A stretch of 24,006 bases of DNA, from UHGV virus genome UHGV-1462358; one strand, 5' to 3'. Origin of the DNA: a virus. How positions within the stretch are numbered: position 1 is the first letter of the stretch; every line of letters starts with the position of its first letter. Positions 2,802 through 23,506 of the stretch are shown piece by piece. The position numbers and the translations under genes were made by a program. Under the pieces are notes generated by a model. The model saw only the letters and a program-made list of their open reading frames with translations. It had not been told where the DNA came from and searched no databases.

Positions 2802-4390
2802 AAATACCATCTTTAGTGGGACCTGACGGGAAAACATCCCTTCGGGAATACGCGGGATATCATGGTGGTGGTGGCGGGTTTGGTGGGCAGCTGCGGGGCT
2901 GGAATCCGCCGAGTGAAAGTGCAGATGCCGCACTCCTTCCCAACTATTCTCGTGGAAATGCCCGCGCTGACGATCTGGTGCGAAATAATGGCTATGCAGC
3001 AAACGCCGTGCAGCTCCACCAGGACCACATCGTCGGGTCATTTTTCAGACTCAGTTATCGACCGAGCTGGCGCTATCTTGGCATCAATGAGGAGGATTCA
3101 CGCGCATTTTCTCGGGATGTGGAAGCCGCCTGGAATGAGTATGCCGAAGATGACTTCTGCGGGATTGATGCCGAACGCAAGCGAACGTTTACGATGATGA
3201 TTCGTGAAGGTGTAGCAATGCATGCGTTTAACGGTGAATTATGCATGCAGGCGACATGGGACAGCGATTCAACGCGTCTTTTCCGTACTCAGTTCAAAAT
3301 GGTTAGTCCGAAGCGCGTCAGTAATCCAAGCAACATCGGTGATACCCGGAACTGTCGCGCCGGGGTAAAAATCAATAATAGTGGTGCTGCGCTGGGATAT
3401 TACGTCAGCGATGACGGTTATCCTGGTTGGATGGCGCAGAACTGGACCTACATACCTCGCGAGCTCCCCGGAGGGCGCCCCTCTTTTATCCATGTCTTCG
3501 AACCGATAGAGGACGGACAGACCCGAGGAGCCAATGCGTTTTACAGCGTTATGGAGCAGATGAAAATGCTCGATACCCTGCAAAACACTCAGCTCCAGAG
3601 TGCGATAGTGAAGGCCATGTATGCTGCCACCATCGAGAGTGAGCTGGATACGCAGACGGCGATGGATTTCATTCTCGGCGCGGATAATAAAGAGCAGCAG
3701 AGCAAACTGACGGGCTGGCTCGGTGAAATGGCGTCCTATTACTCAGCTGCGCCGGTTCGCCTGGGTGGGGCAAGGGTTCCACACCTGTTGCCGGGTGATT
3801 CTCTCAACCTTCAGTCGGCGCAGGATACCGATAACGGCTACTCGACTTTTGAACAGTCACTGCTGCGCTATATTGCCGCTGGGCTGGGTGTATCGTATGA
3901 GCAGCTTTCGCGAAATTATTCTCAGATGAGTTACTCGACTGCGCGCGCAAGCGCTAACGAGTCATGGGCGTACTTCATGGGCCGTCGCAAGTTTGTGGCA
4001 TCCCGACAGGCCTGTCAGATGTTTCTTTGCTGGCTGGAAGAGGCAATTGTCCGCCGCGTGGTCACACTTCCTTCAAAAGCCAGATTCAGCTTTCAGGAAG
4101 CGAGAACAGCCTGGGGAAATGCCAACTGGATCGGCTCAGGCCGCATGGCTATTGACGGGCTGAAAGAGGTACAGGAAGCCGTCATGCTCATCGAGGCTGG
4201 TCTCAGTACGTATGAGAAAGAATGCGCCAAACGCGGTGATGATTATCAGGAGATTTTTGCCCAGCAGGTCCGGGAAACAATGGAGCGTCGTGCTGCGGGT
4301 CTGAAACCACCGGCATGGGCCGCTGCCGCTTTTGAGGCTGGACTGAAAAAATCAAACGAGGAGGAGCAAGATGGCGCACGAGCTGCGTAA
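2798..4390 (+). CDS. B: Portal protein (lambda gpB homolog)
   Basis: 530 aa. [28 protein letters not shown] and the C-terminal [42 protein letters not shown] match lambda gpB as recalled. Position after W is syntenic. Confidence 0.95.
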
Positions 4391-5714
4391 TCTTCCGCAT
4401 ATCGCCAGTATGGCCTTTAATGAGCCGCTGATGCTTGAACCCGCCTACGCGCGGGTTTTCTTTTGTGCCTTAGCTGGTCAGCTGGGCATCACCCGGCTGA
4501 CAGATACCGTCTCTGGCATCACGCTTGACGCCGGACAAATAGCCGAACCGCTGGCGCTGTTTGGTGAAGATGATGACATGGATACCCGACCATCGCGAAG
4601 CTATCAGGTGGCAAATGGCATCGCGGTCTTGCCGGCTTCCGGCACTCTGGTGAGTAAAACCCGTGCGCTGCAGCCTTATTCCGGGATGACGGGTTACAAC
4701 GGGATCATCGCTCGCCTGCAGCAGGCCATCAGTGACCCCGGCGTCGACGGCATTCTACTGGACATGGATACGCCGGGTGGCATGGTGTCCGGGGCGTTTG
4801 ACTGCGCCGACATTATTGCCCGTATGCGCGATATCAAACCCATCTGGGCGCTGGCCAATGACATGAACTGCAGTGCAGGTCAGCTTATTGCCAGTTCGGC
4901 ATCGCGACGGCTGGTCACACAAACGGCCAGAACCGGCTCCATTGGGGTCATGATGGCGCACAGTAACTATGGCGCTGCGCTCAAAACTAACGGCGTTGAG
5001 GTCACGCTGATTTACAGCGGCGATCGCAAGGTCGACGGCAACCCTTACGAAAAGCTTCCGAAAGATGTGCGTGCTGATTTCCAGACGCGTATCGATGCCA
5101 CTCGTCAGATGTTTGCCGAAAAGGTTTCCGCTTATACCGGCATGTCTGTTCAGGACGTGCTGGACACCGAAGCGGCAGTATTCTCCGGCCAGGAATCTTT
5201 GGATAACGGGCTGGCGGATGAACTTGTTAACAATACCGATGCGCTCGGCGTGATGCGCGAAGCACTCGACAGACGCAAAAAAACAACCCTTGGAGGAACT
5301 ATGCCATCACCTTCTGCATCAGCTGTGACCACTAAGCCAGTTGACCAGGCAGCAACTCAGACAACTGCATCAGCTGAACAGGCCACTACCGTTGACACGA
5401 CAATTGCTTCCGTAGCAGCCCCTGTAGATGTCAGTGCGCAGGTTACTGCAGCAGTAGCTGCAGAGAATAGTCGCATCATGGGCATCCTGAACTGCGACGA
5501 GGCTAAAGGGCGTGAGTCACAGGCGCGAGCACTGGCCGAAACGCCGGGTATGACGGTAGAGAGCGCACAGCGCATTCTGGCTGCTGCACCGCAAAGTGCC
5601 CAGACGCGTACCGATACGGCGCTGGATCGTTTGATGGAAACAGCACCCGGTGCACTCCAAGCAGGTAGCGCATCTTCTGATGCCGCTGACGATTTGTTAA
5701 ACACCCCCGTTTAA
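4371..5714 (+). CDS. C: Head maturation protease / scaffold (lambda gpC homolog)
   Basis: 447 aa. N-terminus [37 protein letters not shown] and the C-terminal AAVAAENSRIMGILNC...LLNTPV match lambda gpC as recalled. Overlaps the B 3' end. Confidence 0.9.
   Translation: MAHELRNLPHIASMAFNEPLMLEPAYARVFFCALAGQLGITRLTDTVSGITLDAGQIAEPLALFGEDDDMDTRPSRSYQVANGIAVLPASGTLVSKTRALQPYSGMTGYNGIIARLQQAISDPGVDGILLDMDTPGGMVSGAFDCADIIARMRDIKPIWALANDMNCSAGQLIASSASRRLVTQTARTGSIGVMMAHSNYGAALKTNGVEVTLIYSGDRKVDGNPYEKLPKDVRADFQTRIDATRQMFAEKVSAYTGMSVQDVLDTEAAVFSGQESLDNGLADELVNNTDALGVMREALDRRKKTTLGGTMPSPSASAVTTKPVDQAATQTTASAEQATTVDTTIASVAAPVDVSAQVTAAVAAENSRIMGILNCDEAKGRESQARALAETPGMTVESAQRILAAAPQSAQTRTDTALDRLMETAPGALQAGSASSDAADDLLNTPV
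5304..5714 (+). CDS. nu3: Nested in-frame scaffolding protein (lambda Nu3-like), translated from an internal start within C
   Basis: In-frame ATG at 5304 preceded by GGAGGA (5295-5300). Lambda encodes Nu3 in-frame within the 3' third of C. Ala/Thr/Gln-rich composition fits a scaffold. Confidence 0.5.
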   Translation, partial: PSPSASAVTTKPVDQAATQTTASAEQATTVDTTIASVAAPVDVSAQVTAAVAAENSRIMGILNCDEAKGRESQARALAETPGMTVESAQRILAAAPQSAQTRTDTALDRLMETAPGALQAGSASSDAADDLLNTPV

Positions 5715-5723
5715 GAGGCTATC

Positions 5724-6056
5724 ATGGCAATTACTGAAGTTTTCACACATAACCAGCCGCTCGGTAACAGCGACCCGGCGCACACTGCGTATGGTCCTGG
5801 CGAACTGACAGCTTCCACTCCAGCCATGACGCCGCTCATGCTGGATGCCACTTCTGGCAAGCTGGCCGTCTGGGATGGTGCTCATGCTGGCGCGGCAATG
5901 GGCATCCTGGCTGTAACCGCAGACCAGAACAGCGCGGAACTGGCATTTTACAAATCTGGCTCTTTCCGTATTGAAGATGTCCTCTGGCCATCTGCCGTCA
6001 CCGACGACAACATTAAACGTAACGCGTTCGCCGGTACTGCAATCAGCATCGTTTAA
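5724..6056 (+). CDS. D: Head decoration protein (lambda gpD homolog)
   Basis: 110 aa, same as lambda gpD. NSDPAHTA...PAMTPLMLD...[10 protein letters not shown] matches lambda D as recalled. Confidence 0.9.
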
Positions 6057-15436: not shown

Positions 15437-18400
15437 ATGGCTAAAACAATTACCGGACGAAAAGGCGGGAGCTCCAGTTCCCGAACTCCCACCGAACAGC
15501 CTGATGATCTGCAATCTGTAGCGAAGGCAAAGATCCTCGTTGCGCTTGGGGAAGGGGAGTTTGCTGGACAGCTCACCGGGAAGGATATCTACCTGGACGG
15601 AACGGCGCTGGAGAACGCCGACGGCTCCCAAAACTTCAGCGGCGTTACGTGGGAATTTCGTCCGGGGACTCAGGCACAAAAATATATTCAGGGTATCCCC
15701 GGCACCGAAAATGAAATCAGCGTGGGCACCGAAGTGTCAAGCACCACCGGCTGGACACATACCTTTACCAACACGCAACTGTCAGCCGTTCGCCTGCGCC
15801 TCAAGTGGCCATCGCTTTTTAAACAGGAGGATGATGGCGATCTGGTTGGCTATTCAATTAACTACGCTATTGATCTGCAGACCGATGGCGGCACCTGGCA
15901 GACGGTACTTAATACCAGCGTAACCGGCAAGACAACTTCCGGCTACGAACGCAGCCATCGCATTGACCTACCGCAGGCAGGCAGCACATGGACGGTGCGC
16001 CTGCGTAAGCTAACGGCGGATGCCAACAGCGCGAAAATTGGTGACACGATGACGCTGCAGAGCTATACAGAGGTCATTGACGCCAAACTGCGTTATCCAA
16101 ATACCGCGCTGCTGTACATCGAATTCGACTCAAGCCAGTTTAACGGCTCTATCCCGCAAATATCCTGCGAACCGCGAGGGCGTGTAATCCGCGTTCCGGA
16201 TACGTATGACCCGGAGACCCGCACCTATAGCGGCACATGGACGGGGGCGTTTAAGTGGGCGTGGACGGATAATCCAGCCTGGATTTTTTACGATCTGGTG
16301 GTGAGCGACCGCTTTGGGCTGGGCAATCGCCTGACGGCGGCCAATATTGATAAATGGACGCTTTACCAGGTCGCGCAATATTGCGATCAGCCGGTTCCTG
16401 ATGGTAAAGGCGGTAGCGGCACTGAGCCTCGCTATACCTGCAACGTGTATGTGCAGGAGAGGAATGACGCCTATACCGTGTTACGAGATTTTGCGGCGAT
16501 ATTCCGGGGCATGACTTACTGGGGTGGCGATCAAATCGTTGCGCTGGCGGATATGCCCCGCGATGTGGATTACAGCTACACGCGTGCAAACGTGGTTAAT
16601 GGGCGCTTTACCTATTCGGGCAGCACCACGAAAACCCGCTATACCACAGCACTGGTTTCCTGGTCCGATCCGGGTAATGCCTACGCGGATGCGATGGAGC
16701 CTGTATTTGAGCAGGATCTCGTTGCTCGCTTTGGCACAAATCAGCTCGAAATGACAGCCATTGGTTGTACCAGACAGTCAGAAGCGAACCGAAAGGGGCG
16801 CTGGGGTATTCTCACCAACAACAAGGATCGCGTTGTTTCGTTCGATGTCGGGCTGGACGGAAACATACCGCAGCCTGGCTATATCATCGCTGTGGCAGAC
16901 GAGCTGCTTTCCGGAAAGGTTATGGGCGGACGCATCAGCGCCGTTAATGGTCGCGTTATCAAACTTGACCGTGTAGCTGATGCGGCAGCAGGTGATCGCC
17001 TTATCCTCAACCTTCCCTCCGGAGCGTCACAGAGCAGGACAATTCAGGCGGTTAACGGGGAATCGGTCACAGTCACCACCGCATACAGTGAGACGCCGCA
17101 GGCCGAAGCTGTCTGGGTGGTTGAGTCAAACGAACTGTACGCACAGCAGTACCGTGTTGTGAGCGTCACTGATAACGATGATGGCACTTTCACCATTACC
17201 GGTGCATGGCACGATCCGGATAAATATGCCCGAATCGATACCGGAGCCATTATTGACCAGCGGCCGGTGAGCGTGATCCCGCCGGGCAATCAGTCACCGC
17301 CAGACAACATCGTAATCAGTTCGTTTTCGGTGGTGCAGCAGAATATCAGCGTCGAAACCATGCGCGTGAGCTGGGACCAGGCGCAGAATGCTATCGCCTA
17401 TGAAGCGCAATGGCGCCGCAACGACGGGAACTGGGTTAACGTGCCGCGCAGTTCCACCACGTCATTCGACGTTCCTGGGATTTATGCCGGGCGCTATCTG
17501 GTACGTGTACGCGCCATCAATGCCGCAGAAATTTCATCCGGGTGGGGATATTCGGAAGAGAAAACGCTGACGGGTAAAGTGGGCAATCCGCCGAAACCGG
17601 TCGGCTTCATCGCTTCCGATAATGTGGTATTCGGTATCGAGCTGAGCTGGGGATTCCCGGCGAACACCGACGACACGCTGAAGACGGAAATTCAGTACAG
17701 TCTGACTGGGACGGAAGACGATGCGATGCTGCTGGCAGACGTACCCTATCCGCAGCGCAAGTATCAGCAGATGGGCCTAAAGGCTGGGCAAATTTTCTGG
17801 TACCGCGCGCAGCTGGTGGACCGCAGCGGAAACGAATCAGGGTATACAGACTTTGTGCGCGGGCAGGCCAGCATCGATGTATCCGATATCACCGATGCAA
17901 TCCTGGAGGATATGAAAGAGTCGGAAACGTTCAAAGACCTGATCGAGAACGCGGTAGACAGCAATGAAAAAATTGCTGGTATGGCTGACGACATTAAACA
18001 GGCCAACGACGAACTGGCGCAACAGGCGCAGGATATCGCCAAAAACGCCCAGGATATCGGGAAGGTTCAGACCAGCGTTACAAACCTGTCGAGCACGGTC
18101 GGAGATGTGTCTTCTTCTCTGAGCAAGCTTGAGCAGACAGTGGCGACGGCTGATACCGCGCTGGGCCAGCGCATCGATAACATCAGCGTGTCTGTGGACG
18201 GTATGACGGGAGGAGTGAAGAACTCTGCCATCGCGATTATTCAGGGCAACCTGGCGCAGGTGGCGGCGCGCAAAACGCTGTCTGCATCCGTCGCCGGTAA
18301 CAGCGCGCAGCTGGACCGCATTGATGAGGTGATCGTCAACGAGAAAGAGGCAACGGCGCGTTCGCTGCTGAGTTTGCAGACTAACGTGAACGGCAACAAG

Positions 18401-18982
18401 GCATCTATCAACAGCCTGAACCAGACGTTCTCCGATTACCAGCAGGCCACGGCCACGCAGATAAACGGGATCACAGCGACCGTCAACGGACACACATCAG
18501 CCATTACCACTAACGCTCAGGCCATAGCGAACGTTAACGGTGATCTGAAGGCGATGTACAGCATCAAGGTTGGTGTCTCCAGCAATGGTCAGTATTACGC
18601 CGCAGGGATGGGGATCGGCGTGGAGAATACGCCGTCCGGCATGCAGTCACAGGTCATCTTCCTGGCTGACCGCTTCGCCGTCACCACGGCAGCAGGTAAC
18701 AGCGTGGCTTTGCCGTTTGTGATCCAGAACGGGCAGACATTCATCCGGGCCAGTTTCATCCAGGACGGCACTATCAGCAACGCAAAGATTGGTAATTTTA
18801 TCCAGTCGAACAATTATGTTGCTGGTTCTGCTGGCTGGAAGCTTGATAAAGGGGGGACGTTTGAGAACTACGGTTCGACTGCTGGTGAGGGAGCCATGAA
18901 ACTGACAAATCAGACGATCAGCGTCAAAGATGGCAGTAATGTTCTTAGGGTGCAGGTTGGCCGATTAACGGGAGTATTCTGA
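15437..18982 (+). CDS. J: Central tail fibre / host specificity protein (lambda gpJ homolog)
   Basis: 1181 aa versus 1132 for lambda J. Conserved blocks (TEVIDAKLRYPNTALLYIEFDS, YSGTWTGAFKWAWTDNPAWIFYDL, YQVAQYCDQPVPDGKGGSGTEPRYTCNVY) match lambda J as recalled. The C-terminal ~150 aa differ from lambda. Confidence 0.95.
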   Translation: MAKTITGRKGGSSSSRTPTEQPDDLQSVAKAKILVALGEGEFAGQLTGKDIYLDGTALENADGSQNFSGVTWEFRPGTQAQKYIQGIPGTENEISVGTEVSSTTGWTHTFTNTQLSAVRLRLKWPSLFKQEDDGDLVGYSINYAIDLQTDGGTWQTVLNTSVTGKTTSGYERSHRIDLPQAGSTWTVRLRKLTADANSAKIGDTMTLQSYTEVIDAKLRYPNTALLYIEFDSSQFNGSIPQISCEPRGRVIRVPDTYDPETRTYSGTWTGAFKWAWTDNPAWIFYDLVVSDRFGLGNRLTAANIDKWTLYQVAQYCDQPVPDGKGGSGTEPRYTCNVYVQERNDAYTVLRDFAAIFRGMTYWGGDQIVALADMPRDVDYSYTRANVVNGRFTYSGSTTKTRYTTALVSWSDPGNAYADAMEPVFEQDLVARFGTNQLEMTAIGCTRQSEANRKGRWGILTNNKDRVVSFDVGLDGNIPQPGYIIAVADELLSGKVMGGRISAVNGRVIKLDRVADAAAGDRLILNLPSGASQSRTIQAVNGESVTVTTAYSETPQAEAVWVVESNELYAQQYRVVSVTDNDDGTFTITGAWHDPDKYARIDTGAIIDQRPVSVIPPGNQSPPDNIVISSFSVVQQNISVETMRVSWDQAQNAIAYEAQWRRNDGNWVNVPRSSTTSFDVPGIYAGRYLVRVRAINAAEISSGWGYSEEKTLTGKVGNPPKPVGFIASDNVVFGIELSWGFPANTDDTLKTEIQYSLTGTEDDAMLLADVPYPQRKYQQMGLKAGQIFWYRAQLVDRSGNESGYTDFVRGQASIDVSDITDAILEDMKESETFKDLIENAVDSNEKIAGMADDIKQANDELAQQAQDIAKNAQDIGKVQTSVTNLSSTVGDVSSSLSKLEQTVATADTALGQRIDNISVSVDGMTGGVKNSAIAIIQGNLAQVAARKTLSASVAGNSAQLDRIDEVIVNEKEATARSLLSLQTNVNGNKASINSLNQTFSDYQQATATQINGITATVNGHTSAITTNAQAIANVNGDLKAMYSIKVGVSSNGQYYAAGMGIGVENTPSGMQSQVIFLADRFAVTTAAGNSVALPFVIQNGQTFIRASFIQDGTISNAKIGNFIQSNNYVAGSAGWKLDKGGTFENYGSTAGEGAMKLTNQTISVKDGSNVLRVQVGRLTGVF

Positions 18983-18983
18983 A

Positions 18984-19286
18984 ATGGCTTATGGAATACA
19001 GACCTGGGATGCTTCAGGAAAACCCAACAACTATGGCATCAAACCCGTTTCCGTCGTTGGGCGAATACAGCTGGCTGCCGGGCAAACCTCCGGCAGCTGG
19101 TCTTTTACGGTGCCCTCAGGAATGAAAGTTGGTTTTGTTCTTTCACTTGATGAAGGAGGTAACAGCGTAGGGCGGCGCATTGTCGCGTCAGGGAGCACAA
19201 TAACCGTAAGCGCTGCATCTTCTGTAGGTCTGGGTAATTATCCGGCCTCAAAGTGTGAAGTGGTCGTTTTCATGGAGAAAGCATAA
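18984..19286 (+). CDS. Hypothetical protein, translationally coupled to J (function unknown)
   Basis: 100-aa ORF with ATG 1 nt after the J stop and GGGAG 9 nt upstream. Shares a G-x3-W-D-A-x-G-K motif with the next ORF. Confidence 0.6.
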   Translation: MAYGIQTWDASGKPNNYGIKPVSVVGRIQLAAGQTSGSWSFTVPSGMKVGFVLSLDEGGNSVGRRIVASGSTITVSAASSVGLGNYPASKCEVVVFMEKA

Positions 19287-19960
19287 TGGCCGAATTTGGC
19301 GCGATGATATTAATGGACAACGGGAACCCATTTGTAACGCCCCAGTCAACGCCTTTTTGTCTTTACGGCAAGTACACTTTCAACTCCTCTGCTAATGGCA
19401 GTTCGCAGCAGGTTGCTCAGAATATTGCATTAAATGCTGACTACCCTGTGATGGTATTTATCAGGACCACAAATACCGCCCAGCCCACGCCAGTAATATC
19501 TTACCGGAACGGAGGAAATGTATATGTCGCGGGGGTTAATCCCTATAACAAGAGCTTCACGTTAACCGCATATATATTTGCCATATTTCCCCAGACGTTA
19601 CCGAAATGGGGGATGGCCATCTGGGATGCGGCAGGAAAGCTGGTGCTCACTAATGAGTCCCGGGTGTTGTCCGACCTACAGACAATTGGAACGCCTGGCG
19701 CAAACGGAGGGATAAATATCGATCAGACACTTAGCGGGCCATGGGCTGTTGCACCTGCACAGCTTGGCCAAAGCATCGTTGTGAATAACTCAACCCAGCC
19801 TCCGACAATCTACACCATTAATGCTTATTCGGCGTGCAGGTTTGACGGGGCCAATACGAGGATAAACGCAGGGGGGACCTCCACTGGCACAGGCTCTCCG
19901 GTAGGGGTAACGAATACTGGAATTTCCTTAACCGCGATAAATACAGCGGCCTATGACTGA
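19286..19960 (+). CDS. Hypothetical protein containing two tandem copies of the domain found in the preceding ORF
   Basis: 224 aa. Start overlaps the previous stop (TAATG). Motif copies at the N-terminus (GAMILMDNGNP) and mid-protein (GMAIWDAAGK) match YGIQTWDASGKP of the upstream ORF. Confidence 0.6.
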   Translation: MAEFGAMILMDNGNPFVTPQSTPFCLYGKYTFNSSANGSSQQVAQNIALNADYPVMVFIRTTNTAQPTPVISYRNGGNVYVAGVNPYNKSFTLTAYIFAIFPQTLPKWGMAIWDAAGKLVLTNESRVLSDLQTIGTPGANGGINIDQTLSGPWAVAPAQLGQSIVVNNSTQPPTIYTINAYSACRFDGANTRINAGGTSTGTGSPVGVTNTGISLTAINTAAYD

Positions 19961-20000
19961 TTGATCGTTTTGGGCGATCAATAACTGATAATTGATCTAT
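19961..20000 (+). promoter_or_regulatory. Inverted-repeat, GATC-rich putative operator/promoter region upstream of the lipoprotein moron
   Basis: TTGATCG-N7-CGATCAA (19961-19981) and an AT-rich ATAATTGAT-N7-ATCAATTAT repeat just downstream. Three GATC sites lie within about 35 bp. Confidence 0.3.
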
Positions 20001-20071
20001 CAAATCAATTATACCCACCTCTTTCATGTTGGTATTGTCTAAGTTCATGAATACCTCTGGATATCATCAAA

Positions 20072-20305
20072 ATGATTAAGCTTCTTATCGGTATGGCTTG
20101 CGCTGCCATGCTTTCAGGTTGCGCTGGTGTACTTGAGAAACAGGAACCGATTTGCAGCGGCACGGCATATATGGGTGGCCATGAGAATACCGTTATGATT
20201 TACGCCGTTCGAAAGCAAAACAACCAGACGCAATACCGGGCCGGATATCCCTTTAACTGGCGCTGGGTAAGTGCGAACACATTCACAAGCACGACATGTA
20301 AATAA
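20072..20305 (+). CDS. Small outer-membrane lipoprotein moron; putative Cor/Llp-like superinfection-exclusion protein
   Basis: 77 aa. Signal peptide MIKLLIGMACAAMLSGC with lipobox L-S-G-C. Located 3' of the receptor-binding genes and flanked by its own terminator. The Cor/Llp assignment rests on size, lipobox and position only. Confidence 0.6.
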   Translation: MIKLLIGMACAAMLSGCAGVLEKQEPICSGTAYMGGHENTVMIYAVRKQNNQTQYRAGYPFNWRWVSANTFTSTTCK

Positions 20306-20325
20306 CTCATGACTTTCAATGCAAA

Positions 20326-20347
20326 CCTCGCCTCGGCGGGGTTTTTT
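20326..20347 (+). terminator. Intrinsic terminator after the lipoprotein gene
   Basis: GC-rich hairpin (CCTCGCC/GGCGGGG arms) followed by TTTTTT at 20342-20347, 21 nt after the stop at 20305. Confidence 0.6.
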
Positions 20348-20363
20348 ATTGCCTGGAGAAAAT

Positions 20364-21473
20364 ATGCTTTATAACACAGGAACTATCTCTATTAACGGAA
20401 ATACCGCAACCGGATCCGGTACAAACTGGACTGCACCGGCCAGCCAGGTTCGCGCTGGCCAGACGATTATTGTCATGTCTAACCCGGTTCAGATGTTCCA
20501 GATTTCATCCGTGAATAGCGCCACGTCAATGACGGTAACGCCTGCTGCATCACCGGCGCTGAGCGGCCAGAAGTACGGCATTCTGGTATCAGACAATATC
20601 TCGGTTGATGGGCTGGCGCTGGCCATGTCGCAGCTTATCAAGGAGTATGACGAGAATATTGGTGCGTGGGAGACGTTCGCCACAACCTCAGCCAACCAGA
20701 ACATTACCGTTACGATCAATGGCACCAGTTTATCAATCCCGGCTCTTGGGAAATTACTGCAGAAGGGGAGCAACGGAGCTTTGCCGGTTAATCAAGGTGG
20801 TACCGGCGCAACGAATGCCGCAGACGCTCGCACAAACCTTGGTTTAGGAAGTAGTGCGACAAAGGATGTCGGAACTGCGGCAGGGAATGTTATGCAGGTG
20901 GGAGCTTTTGGGGTTGGTGCTGCTCTCCAAAATAAGCCCACAGATGCCAGTTCATCCTTCATCAGTGATGCTGCTGGCAATACTCTGTGGGCTCCTGCGA
21001 ATGGCTGTGGGTTTCAGAGTTCCTACACCGAGCAGCGAATTGCGCAGCTGTGGATTACTTACGGTGGTGCGATATTCAGCCGTTTTCTAACAACCACTGA
21101 TGACCCTCAAACACCAAAATCATCAGTGCCGTGGGCGCAGCTGCAGTCTGCAGGTACATCGGACATAAATTTCAAGAAGGTTACTGGAGAACTTAATTTA
21201 GAAGTGTCTCTGGCCAACATCGTGGCAATGGATTTTAAGACCTTCTACTACCTTGCTGATGAAGAGAAAACGATACGCCGAGGTGTTGTTGCTCAGGAAC
21301 TGGAAAAGATAGATCCGCAATATGTTCACTCGGCTGAGGAGTCGGGGAAAATGACCCTAGACCTCAATCCTCTGGTGCTCGATGCGCTGGCGGCAATCAA
21401 AGAGCTGGCAATCCGCGTCAGCGCATTAGAGGGCGACGCTAAATCTCCGGCTTCTGGCTCATCCGCTGGTTAA
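20364..21473 (+). CDS. Side tail fibre protein: constant N-terminal part (to ~20840) fused to the variable part currently in the expressed orientation; C-terminal intramolecular chaperone-like (peptidase S74-type) domain
   Basis: ATG at 20364 with GGAGA RBS; the track's 20319 start runs through the terminator hairpin. GGTGATNAADARTNLGLGSSAT hinge motif is typical of phage tail fibres. C-terminal ...FKTFYYLADEE..GVVAQELEKIDPQYV...LVLDALAAIKELAIRVSALE fits the self-cleaving chaperone domain pattern. Confidence 0.75.
   Translation: MLYNTGTISINGNTATGSGTNWTAPASQVRAGQTIIVMSNPVQMFQISSVNSATSMTVTPAASPALSGQKYGILVSDNISVDGLALAMSQLIKEYDENIGAWETFATTSANQNITVTINGTSLSIPALGKLLQKGSNGALPVNQGGTGATNAADARTNLGLGSSATKDVGTAAGNVMQVGAFGVGAALQNKPTDASSSFISDAAGNTLWAPANGCGFQSSYTEQRIAQLWITYGGAIFSRFLTTTDDPQTPKSSVPWAQLQSAGTSDINFKKVTGELNLEVSLANIVAMDFKTFYYLADEEKTIRRGVVAQELEKIDPQYVHSAEESGKMTLDLNPLVLDALAAIKELAIRVSALEGDAKSPASGSSAG
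20827..20852. repeat. Left recombination site (gix/hix-like 26-bp site) of the invertible segment
   Basis: CTCGCACAAACC-TT-GGTTTAGGAAGT: dyad-symmetric AAACC-NN-GGTTT centre, as in hix/gix sites as recalled. Inner half matches the inner half of the right site at 10 of 12 positions. Confidence 0.6.
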
Positions 21474-22228
21474 ACAGTGAATCTGCGGGCATATCCAAGC
21501 GAACATCGATCCAGCTGTTCGCCGGTACGTCCATCGGTTCACCTTTGGTTTTGATGATTTCACCTTCATCGCTCAGGATGTATTTGCGTTTATACAGACG
21601 GATAGTCAGCCCACCGCTATCGGTTTGCTCTGCCTCAACTACACCCAGTTCCCCCATGCCGCCAGGGTCCATTGGGGGAAGTAACTGCCATCCCTCAGAC
21701 GCCAGGCCTGCCGAACCTGTGAGAACATAAACGCCGACATCAAGCCGTGAAATAGTAATGCCCTCAGCCTCGGCATTCGCCGCACCGCAGCCGCACCAGG
21801 TAAAACCATCCTCCGCTATATCAGCACGCTGGCACTCATCCTTGCTCGTTACAATTCGTGCCACGGGGGAGGCAGCTTTGATAGTGCCGTCACTGGCTTT
21901 TGTCGTATTAGCTGTATGGTAAAATTCATACCATTTACCTGCTGTTCCGCCTATAACCTGGCTAAACATTTTTCTCCCGACAGGCCCACTTAGCCAGCAC
22001 TCAAAGGTGCCGTAATTTGGGCTTCGGTTCATCCAGACACCGTAGCCCGCATCATTAGTTGGCAGGCCGTTGCCGGAACCAGAGGCAATGTTATAAAAGC
22101 CATTTAATCTCGCGTTTTCGTAACGGTTTTGTTCGGCAGGGGCAACAACACCCAAGCCCAAATCCCCTACAGAAAGTATATCGCCAGATGAGCTGTACGC
22201 GTTCCTTGTAGCGCTGCTTCCCAAACCA
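20840..22228. mobile_element. About 1.4 kb invertible DNA segment (Mu G / P1 C / e14 P-type) carrying two convergent alternative tail-fibre C-terminal coding regions
   Basis: Bounded by inverted gix-like sites with identical TT core dinucleotides in inverted orientation. Both cores fall at codon positions 2-3 in the respective reading frames. A Gin/Pin-family invertase gene lies immediately adjacent. Confidence 0.6.
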
Positions 22229-22229
22229 A
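21439..22229 (-). CDS. Alternative tail-fibre C-terminal segment (currently in non-expressed orientation; no start codon of its own within the segment)
   Basis: Minus-strand ORF encoding ...NVGLGSSATRNAYSS..., sharing the (N)xGLGSSAT junction motif with the + strand fibre. It overlaps the + fibre 3' end convergently by 35 bp. The track's GTG start at 22272 lies outside the segment and is probably fortuitous. Confidence 0.6.
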
Positions 22230-22241
22230 CGTTTAATAGAT
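22216..22241. repeat. Right recombination site (gix/hix-like) of the invertible segment
   Basis: GCTTCCCAAACC-AA-CGTTTAATAGAT on the + strand. Its reverse complement ATCTATTAAACG-TT-GGTTTGGGAAGC aligns with the left site. Confidence 0.55.
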
Positions 22242-22305
22242 TGCCACGGGCCGGCCTGGCCGATAACTTCACCTGATTTTTTTGCAGAATTTATTGGGTG
22301 AAAAA

Positions 22306-22861
22306 TATGCAAATTGGCTATGTCAGAGTGTCAACAAATGACCAAAATACAGATCTCCAGCGCCAATCTCTCGAACGCGCAGGATGTGAACAGGTTTTTG
22401 AAGAAAAAATGAGCGGGACGGTAGCGAACCGGCCAGCGCTCAAAAAGCTTCTGCGGACTCTGAATGCGGGCGATACACTGGTGGTGTGGAAACTAGATCG
22501 CCTCGGGCGAAGCATGCGAAATTTAGTGCTGCTGGTGGACGAACTCCGACAGCGGGGCATTCACTTTAAGAGCCTCACGGACAGCATTGATACATCAAGT
22601 CCAATGGGGCGTTTTATATTTCACATCATGTCAGCGCTGGCGGAAATGGAAAGAGAGTTAATCGTCGAACGCACCCGGGCTGGATTAGCGGCGGCGCGGG
22701 AAAAAGGGCGAATAGGTGGCAGACGTCCAAAATTAACTCCCGAGCAATGGGCACAGGCTGGGAGATTAATATTAAACGGCGTGGATAGAAAACAAGTGGC
22801 AATAATTTATGATGTCGCTGTATGCACGCTTTATAAAAAATTTCCGGTGGGACAGGCTTAA
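22306..22861 (+). CDS. Serine recombinase, DNA invertase (Gin/Hin/Pin/Cin family)
   Basis: MQIGYVRVSTNDQNTDLQR... with catalytic Ser in the VRVSTNDQ motif. TLVVWKLDRLGRS, SLTDSIDTSSPMGRF and the C-terminal HTH (KQVAIIYDVAVCTLYKKFP) are near-identical to Gin/Hin as recalled. ATG at 22306 preferred over the track's GTG at 22298. Confidence 0.9.
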
Positions 22862-22903
22862 ATGATTGAAGGGCAGCTGCTAGATGGGCTGCCCGTCAAA
22901 GTA

Positions 22904-23167
22904 TTATCCATTCTGCCGTACAGTTGGAAATTCAGACGTCAGCCACATGTCAGATTCATCAAACATTTCCTCCAGCATACGGTTCAGCTTTTCCCGATCA
23001 CTTTTGCTGGCATCACTATTTAAGCCGTTCGCCTGCATCGGCTTTACCTTCACTTCGGCATCAGGAAAAATCTGGTGCACCCGCTTCGTTAGTTCAGCCA
23101 GGATGATCTCTCTGGCCCCTTGGAGCCCCTCAACATTTCGCTTGTCATAAACCAGTTCAACAAACAT
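22904..23167 (-). CDS. DinI-family protein (SOS-inducible, RecA-modulating)
   Basis: Internal ATG at 23167 with GAGAGGA RBS gives an 88-aa product. The C-terminal LEEMFDESDMWL resembles the DinI C-terminus (...WESADDWF). A LexA box lies 57 nt upstream. The track's 160-aa version starts beyond the promoter and is rejected. Confidence 0.7.
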   Translation of the reverse strand: MFVELVYDKRNVEGLQGAREIILAELTKRVHQIFPDAEVKVKPMQANGLNSDASKSDREKLNRMLEEMFDESDMWLTSEFPTVRQNG

Positions 23168-23223
23168 ACGGATCCTCTCATAAGTGAAAATTGCCTGTGC
23201 TTGATCTGTTTTCATAAAAATAC

Positions 23224-23243
23224 TACTGTATATACATACAGTC
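23224..23243. promoter_or_regulatory. LexA operator (SOS box) in the divergent promoter region
   Basis: TACTGTATATACATACAGTC matches the CTGT-N8-ACAG consensus (TACTGTATATATATACAGTA) at 18 of 20 positions. A candidate -35 TTGACT overlaps it on the minus strand. Confidence 0.8.
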
Positions 23244-23266
23244 AATAAGCAAGTGAGGGTGCGTTC

Positions 23267-23506
23267 ATGCCTCGTCAACCGGATATTCGTGCTGCTTTTA
23301 TTGCGGCCATACAGCAAAACCCGAAGGGCTATCTCTGCCTGCATACAGACAGATTCATCGCTGAACTGCAGGAGAGGCACTGGCATTTCAGCCAGGCAGA
23401 TGCAAATTCATGGATCGAACGATACCAGCCAGACTTCGCCGATAAGACGACAAACGGAAGTGAGAACCGATACTGGATCCTGCGTAACATGGGGAGGGTT
23501 TTCTAA
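23267..23506 (+). CDS. Hypothetical protein (79 aa), first gene of LexA-box-proximal operon
   Basis: ATG at 23267 with GAGGG 7 nt upstream. Stop overlaps the next start (TAATG). No family recognised. Confidence 0.5.
   Translation: MPRQPDIRAAFIAAIQQNPKGYLCLHTDRFIAELQERHWHFSQADANSWIERYQPDFADKTTNGSENRYWILRNMGRVF

Follow-up and report, generated by a model that had tools for sequence, protein, structure and literature searches.

The side tail fibre gene of the virus genome UHGV-1462358, a phi80/HK022-like lambdoid prophage of which we analysed a stretch of 24,006 nucleotides (hereafter the window), ends within a short segment of DNA that encodes two alternative fibre C-termini on opposite strands and that occurs in nature in both orientations. 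In its present state the gene (20364-21473, + strand in the list of open reading frames, ORFs; PHROG tail-fibre families, E down to 1e-80) terminates in a Peptidase_S74 intramolecular chaperone, and the convergent ORF that encodes the silent alternative fibre end (21439-22272, minus strand) terminates in a PF25670 (Phage_tail_C_2) domain. Building on the anatomy of this segment, its domain assignments, its reading-frame logic and the fact that both orientations are found in nature, we consider it likely that the locus is a Gin/Pin-type inversion switch situated in a side tail fibre gene, which exchanges a self-removing S74 tip for a PF25670 tip that stays in place. The two tips do differ in structure, and this contrast recurs among related loci.

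The segment is delimited by two crossover sites, the left one (CTCGCAC-AAACC-TT-GGTTT-AGGAAGT, 20827-20852, central TT at 20839-20840) being the equivalent of IR-L in phage LLS, and the right one (GCTTCCC-AAACC-AA-CGTTT-AATAGAT, 22216-22241) having a central AA (22228-22229) that is the complement of the left TT. Their cores (AAACC-TT-GGTTT at 20834 and AAACC-AA-CGTTT at 22223) resemble the gix/cix/hix consensus, and the longest inverted repeat of the region was found at 20834-20862 / 22206-22234 (83% complementary). Both sites fall in the codons of a conserved ...ARTNLGLGSSAT... stretch: the left one lies inside the codons for R-T-N-L-G-L-G-S (context A-R-T-N-L-G-L-G-S-S-A-T), and the minus-strand ORF reads N-V-G-L-G-S-S-A-T at the right one. 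The invertible segment itself (20840-22228, 1389 bp) is taken up entirely by the two convergent fibre C-termini. Their 3' ends overlap by 35 nt (21439-21473) in such a way that the last 11 codons of each are mutually antisense, an overlap that is kept in the related loci L003, L005, L007 and L010. Adjacent to it, a serine DNA invertase of the Gin/Pin/Cin family (22307-22861, + strand, 184 aa from the ATG at 22307; longest ORF from the GTG at 22298) matched the Pfam families Resolvase and HTH_7 and the PHROG DNA invertase family (E 1e-89), and aligned end to end with Mu Gin (3uj3, E 3.8e-86), the YVRVxTNDQ stretch included. Its catalytic Ser stands in an R-V-S-T motif, at which the crystallised Gin chain 3uj3 reads Ala.

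Inversion of 20840-22228 in silico, after which the silent module is read from the Leu/Gly codons at the crossover, yielded a 436-aa ORF that is residue-for-residue identical to a natural Escherichia coli protein (P0005; a second protein, P0003, corresponds to P0005 from an inner ATG, with 421 aa). Both natural proteins are 100% identical to the window over the silent module (21442-22229, minus strand), and identical as well over the constant N-terminal part that the two isoforms have in common (20364-20839, + strand). At the DNA level, contigs that encode P0003 (L007) carry 20834-22234 in inverted orientation at 99.86% identity with both flanks collinear (99.5-99.6%), and the breakpoints of this natural inversion lie inside the inverted repeat. 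A 5.1-Mb contig of GCA_964043915.1 (L010) is 100% identical to 19900-23500 and has the orientation of the window, in the same prophage at the same chromosomal site as the inverted contigs. Since one contig is identical to the window and another is inverted between collinear flanks, both orientations of the same prophage occur in nature. Two ENA contigs (L011, 3590-5930; L012, 2791-5131), which were examined as candidate mixtures of orientations in one sample, were rejected: their two ‘constant’ copies share only 86.6% identity, the order being a fibre with S74 forwards, followed by a full-length PF25670 fibre, cor and J in reverse, and they probably represent assembly joins of two related prophages that share the cassette pair.

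The S74 assignment of the expressed module proved robust, its match strength being far past chance. Pfam PF13884 matched residues 281-336 (numbered throughout in the 384-aa frame of the + strand fibre ORF, start 20319) at E 1.1e-8. The score is 35.7 bits, where the gathering score is 22, and profile positions 1-57 of 58 are aligned (21159-21326); this match is succeeded by a C-terminal stretch (LVLDALAAIKELAIRVSALE) that aligns to the end of the DT57C fibre. By Pfam and alignment, the domain spans 104 aa (21159-21470, + strand, 11.2 kDa), i.e. the extreme C-terminus of a protein that otherwise matches tail-fibre PHROGs, and is in register, to the protein end, with the ‘GTSGIEYKK’ stretch of the DT57C L-shaped tail fibre (8hqz_d). 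The Ser281 codon (21159-21161) and the Lys286 codon (21174-21176) lie in the context T-S-D-I-N-F-K, and Ser, Asp and the Lys five positions on are invariant in an alignment of 37 S74 homologues (down to 38% identity). T5 pb1 is cut between Thr1263 and Ser1264, with Lys1269, the fifth residue after the Ser, as the general base (PMC4690869); the Ser-to-Lys spacing and the preceding Thr are the same in the window. Cleavage at this predicted site would, by computation, give a 27.0-kDa mature fibre (from Met16) and release an 11.2-kDa fragment. An earlier note on this DNA had assigned such a self-cleaving chaperone to 21200-21473 of the + strand fibre and had seen no obvious one in the silent variant. 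The assignment was borne out by the profile match and by the Ser-Lys dyad, and both peptides quoted there are present in the sequence. The interval covers most of the domain and misses the catalytic Ser and Lys, as the Ser codon at 21159 sets the start of the domain 41 nt upstream of 21200. Upstream of the chaperone, homologue alignment delimits the variable linker and receptor-binding tip of the expressed isoform (residues 175-280, 20841-21158, + strand), whose relatives bear the NCBI name ‘pyocin knob domain-containing S74 family peptidase’ and which, once Thr280|Ser281 has been cut, is predicted to form the distal end of the mature fibre. As a side observation, some S74-type fibres (P0133, P0139 and P0172-P0178) open their variable part with the linker of the PF25670 cassette (...SSATRNAYSSSGDMLSVGD...), which indicates secondary recombination just 3' of the crossover site and the formation of chimeric cassettes.

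The silent module turned out to be of a different kind. PF25670 matched residues 122-263 of the minus-strand ORF (21484-21909) over the full profile length (E 1e-31, 110.2 bits against a cut-off of 27), and no Pfam S74 match was obtained in this ORF even at E<=1; a search of both C-termini with PF13884, which the earlier note had recommended, thus returned a match in the + module and none in the minus module. Likewise, a local S74 hidden Markov model (HMM), for which the 37 homologues served as input and every filter was disabled, gave nothing significant against 41 PF25670-type sequences (best E 3.7, negative scores), and a scan of NCBIfam returned a family match for neither fibre module. The earlier remark that the silent variant has no obvious S74 domain therefore holds, and a PF25670 domain stands in its place. 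This domain was found by tblastn at the fibre C-termini of 244 phage records, its carriers including phi80, T1, HK639, HK140, mEp237 and SU10 together with phages of Klebsiella, Acinetobacter, Providencia, Proteus and Pseudomonas, and an exhaustive HMMER scan recovered 688 cluster representatives at E<=1e-3. A further homologue search with a diverse profile recovered close Enterobacter relatives only and left the diversity of the set as it was. Modelled on its own with AlphaFold2 (AF2) from 22 diverse sequences, it reached a predicted local distance difference test score (pLDDT) of 83.4 and a predicted template modelling score (pTM) of 0.77; in this confident monomer model the domain is a compact globule, mostly beta, and its predicted all-beta fold is unlike the helical S74 chaperone. 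A Foldseek comparison of this model with the PDB gave nothing significant (best E 0.14). Its matches in BFVD were the C-termini of T1-type fibres and of Klebsiella and Acinetobacter capsule tailspikes (e.g. APK116 and KpS110), and S74 structures were absent from all fold-comparison lists.

We propose that the invertase (22307-22861) would recombine the two 26-bp sites (20827-20852 and 22216-22241) and flip the intervening 1389 bp, and that the constant N-terminal 175 residues would therefore be joined in frame to either distal module. The expressed module (module A) consists of a short linker, a ~90-residue tip and the S74 chaperone, which, by analogy with the K1F endosialidase and T5 pb1, would drive trimerisation and subsequently cut itself at Thr280|Ser281 by means of Ser281 and Lys286, so that a 27-kDa mature fibre is left and an 11-kDa fragment is freed. 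The silent module (module B) comprises a linker, a tip and the PF25670 domain, the last of which most probably remains part of the mature fibre and may there act as a folding/registration nucleus and/or as a binding surface. The autocleavage of module A (by analogy), the retention of the PF25670 domain, the chaperone-free folding of module B and a difference in receptor specificity between the two tips are what we infer from these assignments, and it is plausible that the two modules fold by different mechanisms. Because neither module brings a separate chaperone gene of the tail-fibre-assembly (Tfa) type, each cassette would be self-contained. Several points weigh against this proposal. As there is no solved PF25670 structure, the role ascribed to the domain rests on a monomer prediction and on weak fold matches; a first AF2 model (whole minus-strand ORF, shallow alignment of 41 close homologues) was poor, with a pLDDT of 54. 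The only PDB entry with a PF25670 sequence is SU10 gp12, in which the first 90 residues alone were built and which is the proximal subunit of the long fibre and not the distal tip. Finally, the genes at 18984-19960 or host factors could act as chaperones in trans.

As the earlier note had supposed that two modules folding by different mechanisms would be unusual for an invertible fibre cassette, we surveyed the related phage and E. coli loci together with 28 species-representative genome loci that carry the fibre constant domain (from Enterobacter, Buttiauxella, Citrobacter, Pseudocitrobacter, Dryocola and Franconibacter), and typed the cassettes with Pfam and local HMMs. Eighteen loci with an invertase and at least two cassettes were counted. 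The supposition was not borne out in that form: 13 of the 18 mix S74 and PF25670 ends (window, LLS, Phi06_2987 S, MB06232, ABWA45, LR536430, L017, L018, L023, L024, L028, L033 and L041), which is the commonest arrangement, and the mixture is thus the rule in this phi80/HK022-like fibre family. S74 ends only were present in one locus (L025) and PF25670 ends only in three (L034, L039 and mEpX1), and in the remaining one (L038) the expressed end matched no family. The narrow local S74 HMM had missed divergent S74 ends in eight loci; when seven such ends were run on Pfam, a candidate ‘third type’ of fibre end dissolved, five of the seven being S74 and two (L032 and L038) matching no family, with an S-D-x-R-V-K motif visible by eye in L032. 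Phage Phi06_2987 S and E. coli ABWA45 have this very cassette pair of the window together with a third cassette, the PF25670 end being the expressed one in ABWA45, and non-invertible fibres of the same family also end in S74 or PF25670.

Variation in cassette number was observed as well. The close relatives L003 (phage Phi06_2987 S, 3001-5835), L004, L005, L006 and L041 have three or four cassettes in a shufflon-like arrangement. The S74 and PF25670 pair of the window shares 99.5% identity with the final two cassettes of L003, the constant part being only 93% identical, and on the strength of this difference the window looks like a two-cassette version, which may have arisen either by deletion between directly oriented sites or by independent acquisition of a block made of cassettes and invertase. 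Among the 28 species-representative contigs, nine (L020, L021, L022, L026, L027, L030, L035, L037 and L042) break off at the crossover site or shortly beyond it, no more than a few hundred bases from the end of the constant part, which suggests that assemblies break there owing to mixed orientations or repeated cassettes.

The invertible DNA of Mu and P1 includes, behind each of the alternative fibre ends, a tail-fibre-assembly gene (U/U') belonging to that end. Genes annotated ‘Tail fiber assembly protein’ are moreover enriched among the neighbours of programmed inversions (PMC9881135). In the window, where the scanned ORFs reached from the major tail protein to the end of the prophage, none matched a Tfa-type family, and no chaperone gene is annotated 3' of the PF25670 fibre in phi80, T1 or HK639. 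The only nearby candidates for an assembly factor acting in trans are two small conserved genes, one matching phrog_557 ‘outer membrane protein’ (18984-19286) and the other phrog_425 ‘membrane associated protein’ (19286-19960), which accompany this fibre family in phi80, mEpX1 and E. coli prophages. Module B might need a chaperone encoded outside the segment (i.e. these gp22/gp23-like genes or a host factor), and the contrast between the modules would then be one of chaperoning in cis and in trans, not one of chaperone and none. Many fibres do need helpers of the Tfa or gp57 type, and the two small genes always stand between J and cor in this phage group. We nevertheless regard this explanation as unlikely, given that genes of the 18984-19960 type occur as well in phages with an S74-ending fibre, that their products match no chaperone family, that a 6.5-kb stretch of T1 contains no annotated homologue of them in spite of a T1 fibre ending in PF25670, and that PF25670 was confidently modelled as a stand-alone globule.

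A second explanation holds that PF25670 is itself a self-cleaving C-terminal chaperone, cut at an S-D-G-T-I-K motif, and that both tips mature by the same chemistry. This motif (S127-D128-x3-K132) lies a few residues past the start of the Pfam PF25670 match (residue 122 of the minus-strand ORF), is invariant in the 41 close homologues of the minus module, and is retained in cassettes that are otherwise only ~30% identical. When the variant-specific parts of both modules were compared with hhalign (probability 68%, E 4.9e-5), the alignment covered the tip and set S-D-G-T-I-K in register with the S-D-I-N-F-K cleavage motif of S74. Against it, the family-wide survey speaks in concert with the predicted fold: in 132 representatives of 50%-identity clusters of PF25670 the Ser is present in only 63% and the Lys in 76%, with a negative association between them (odds ratio 0.12, p 1e-4); phi80 and T1 read S-N-G-F-I-K, and SU10 gp12 reads V-N-G-F-I-K; the residues that are invariant or nearly so across these representatives are N-T-T, G, A-S-P and R, with the putative dyad not among them; and the domain is predicted to be all-beta, as opposed to the helical S74 chaperone. 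On these grounds PF25670 was set aside as a cryptic S74 or self-cleaving domain, and we hold it to be improbable that the two tips share one maturation chemistry.

The junction from which this explanation arose is nonetheless, in our opinion, the most interesting loose end of the analysis. PF25670 begins with a near-invariant N-T-T..G...A-S-P-(I/V)-x-R motif (21865-21915 in the window, minus strand), which in the enterobacterial lambdoid fibres holds S-D-G-T-(L/I)-K, a mimic of the S74 cleavage motif, and over which the AF2 monomer is of low confidence. It may be speculated, with little expectation of its being correct, that PF25670 is a second class of C-terminal folding module that shares the S74 junction, that both descend from a common linker-knob-S-D-x3-K ancestor, and that in the enterobacterial lambdoid subfamily the domain is cut off after assembly. 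If that were true, the switch would alternate two different self-removing chaperones, and the mature fibre tips of the phi80 and T1 type would be shorter than annotated.

That the minus-strand module is a decaying relic of an inactive switch, which would make the contrast functionally meaningless, finds a parallel in phi80 (where pinL is retained beside a pseudogene fragment of a fibre cassette) and in mEpX1 (where the minus strand has truncated PF25670 remnants only), yet it is hardly credible for the window, in which the ORF of the minus module and the two crossover sites are intact and the invertase is of full length, and whose inverted product is encoded, without any difference, by other E. 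coli isolates with the same prophage.

The inversion switch that we favour shares its layout with the classical fibre switches of Mu (Gin), P1 (Cin), e14 (Pin) and p15B (Min), in that a Gin-family invertase adjoins the segment, 26-bp sites with an AAACC-NN-GGTTT core lie inside the fibre ORF, and a constant N-terminus is joined to alternative C-termini; the p15B shufflon has its counterpart in the behaviour of those relatives of the window that carry three or four cassettes. It differs from Mu and P1, whose segments carry Tfa/U genes, in that its segment holds two fibre ends only (with their 35-nt overlap), in that folding help is either fused (S74) or absent (PF25670), and in that the switch resides in the side tail fibre gene of a lambdoid siphovirus. 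Phage LLS has the same pair in the opposite state (PF25670 expressed and S74 silent), with PF25670 domains that are only ~30% identical to those of the window. Its two opposed fibre genes and invertase have been described, and the switching of tips was inferred to be ‘similar to Mu and P1’ (PMC12315714). For the Enterobacter phage FR-phi (2026), a gin-dependent fibre shufflon with three isoforms, only one of which infects the test host, has been demonstrated experimentally and determines host infectivity (PMC13418256), FR-phi being at most a candidate member of the fibre family of the window. Neither of these two papers mentions the chaperone content of the cassettes, and a literature search that linked S74 or intramolecular chaperones to invertases or invertible DNA found nothing, which is weak evidence since most subscription journals lay outside the search. 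In phi80 (L014, 3881-4667), pinL, short inverted repeats and a ‘tail collar’ fibre cassette pseudogene fragment lie 3' of the PF25670-ending fibre, and this locus is a decayed counterpart of the intact switch of the window.

With regard to the individual tips, the expressed module has the Thr|Ser-Asp-x3-Lys context and the extreme C-terminal S74 position of the K1F endosialidase, T5 pb1 and DT57C, and departs from them in that its S74 domain sits on a very short tip (~90 residues) and not on a long beta-helix, and lies in switchable DNA, its cleavage being predicted. The silent module is a clear PF25670 member (110 bits) alongside the non-invertible fibres of T1, phi80 and HK639, SU10 gp12 and the Acinetobacter and Klebsiella tailspikes, with which it shares the NTT..G...ASP.xR junction and a W-I-D-x-R-L-x-M-P end; in SU10 the domain ends a proximal fibre protein, and in the window it belongs to a distal tip module.

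The switch is located at the end of the late operon, where the host-specificity protein J (15437-18982; profile and PHROG scans), the two small genes, the Cor exclusion lipoprotein (20072-20305), the fibre gene, its alternative end and the invertase (22298/22307-22861, + strand) succeed one another; this order (with one or more alternative ends) is common to phi80, the HK022-like mEpX1 and LLS. DinI, a phrog_3893 gene and a UmuD-like gene follow 3' of the invertase, and the prophage adjoins a tRNA-Pro(GGG) at the window edge. The longest fibre ORF (20319-21473) has 384 aa, and the ATG at 20364 (MLYNTG..., 369 aa) is likely to be the true start, being the one used in homologues and in public gene calls; a 369-aa fibre of identical sequence is called on public contigs, as is an invertase of 184 aa (MQIGYVRVST...), and for both genes the longest ORF probably begins too far upstream. 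The constant fibre part is 73-90% identical in 27 of the 28 species-representative loci and 64% identical in the 28th (Franconibacter). Within it, residues 17-112 (20367-20654) resemble the N-termini of Klebsiella phage capsule depolymerases (7lzj, 7vz3 and 7vyv; E ~1e-11), and presumably form a shared tail-attachment adaptor. In T1 (L015, 1366-3537), the constant-part profile matches a separate 151-aa ‘tail fibers protein’ ORF upstream of the 538-aa fibre that ends in PF25670.

Taken together, these observations describe a chaperone-gene-free variant of a well-known switch: the textbook Mu/P1 cassette provides a separate chaperone gene for each tip, and here two solutions would stand side by side in one 1.4-kb segment, namely a fused, self-removing S74 domain and a retained globular end. 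The analysis also draws attention to PF25670, which, with 688 cluster representatives, is found very widely at the ends of fibres and tailspikes and has an invariant junction motif and no solved structure. As each tip would be a minimal, portable unit, this portability may explain the free exchange of cassettes among prophages of Escherichia, Enterobacter, Lelliottia, Buttiauxella and Citrobacter, and self-contained tips of this kind would be convenient parts for phage engineering, with which the side fibres of lambdoid phages could be retargeted.

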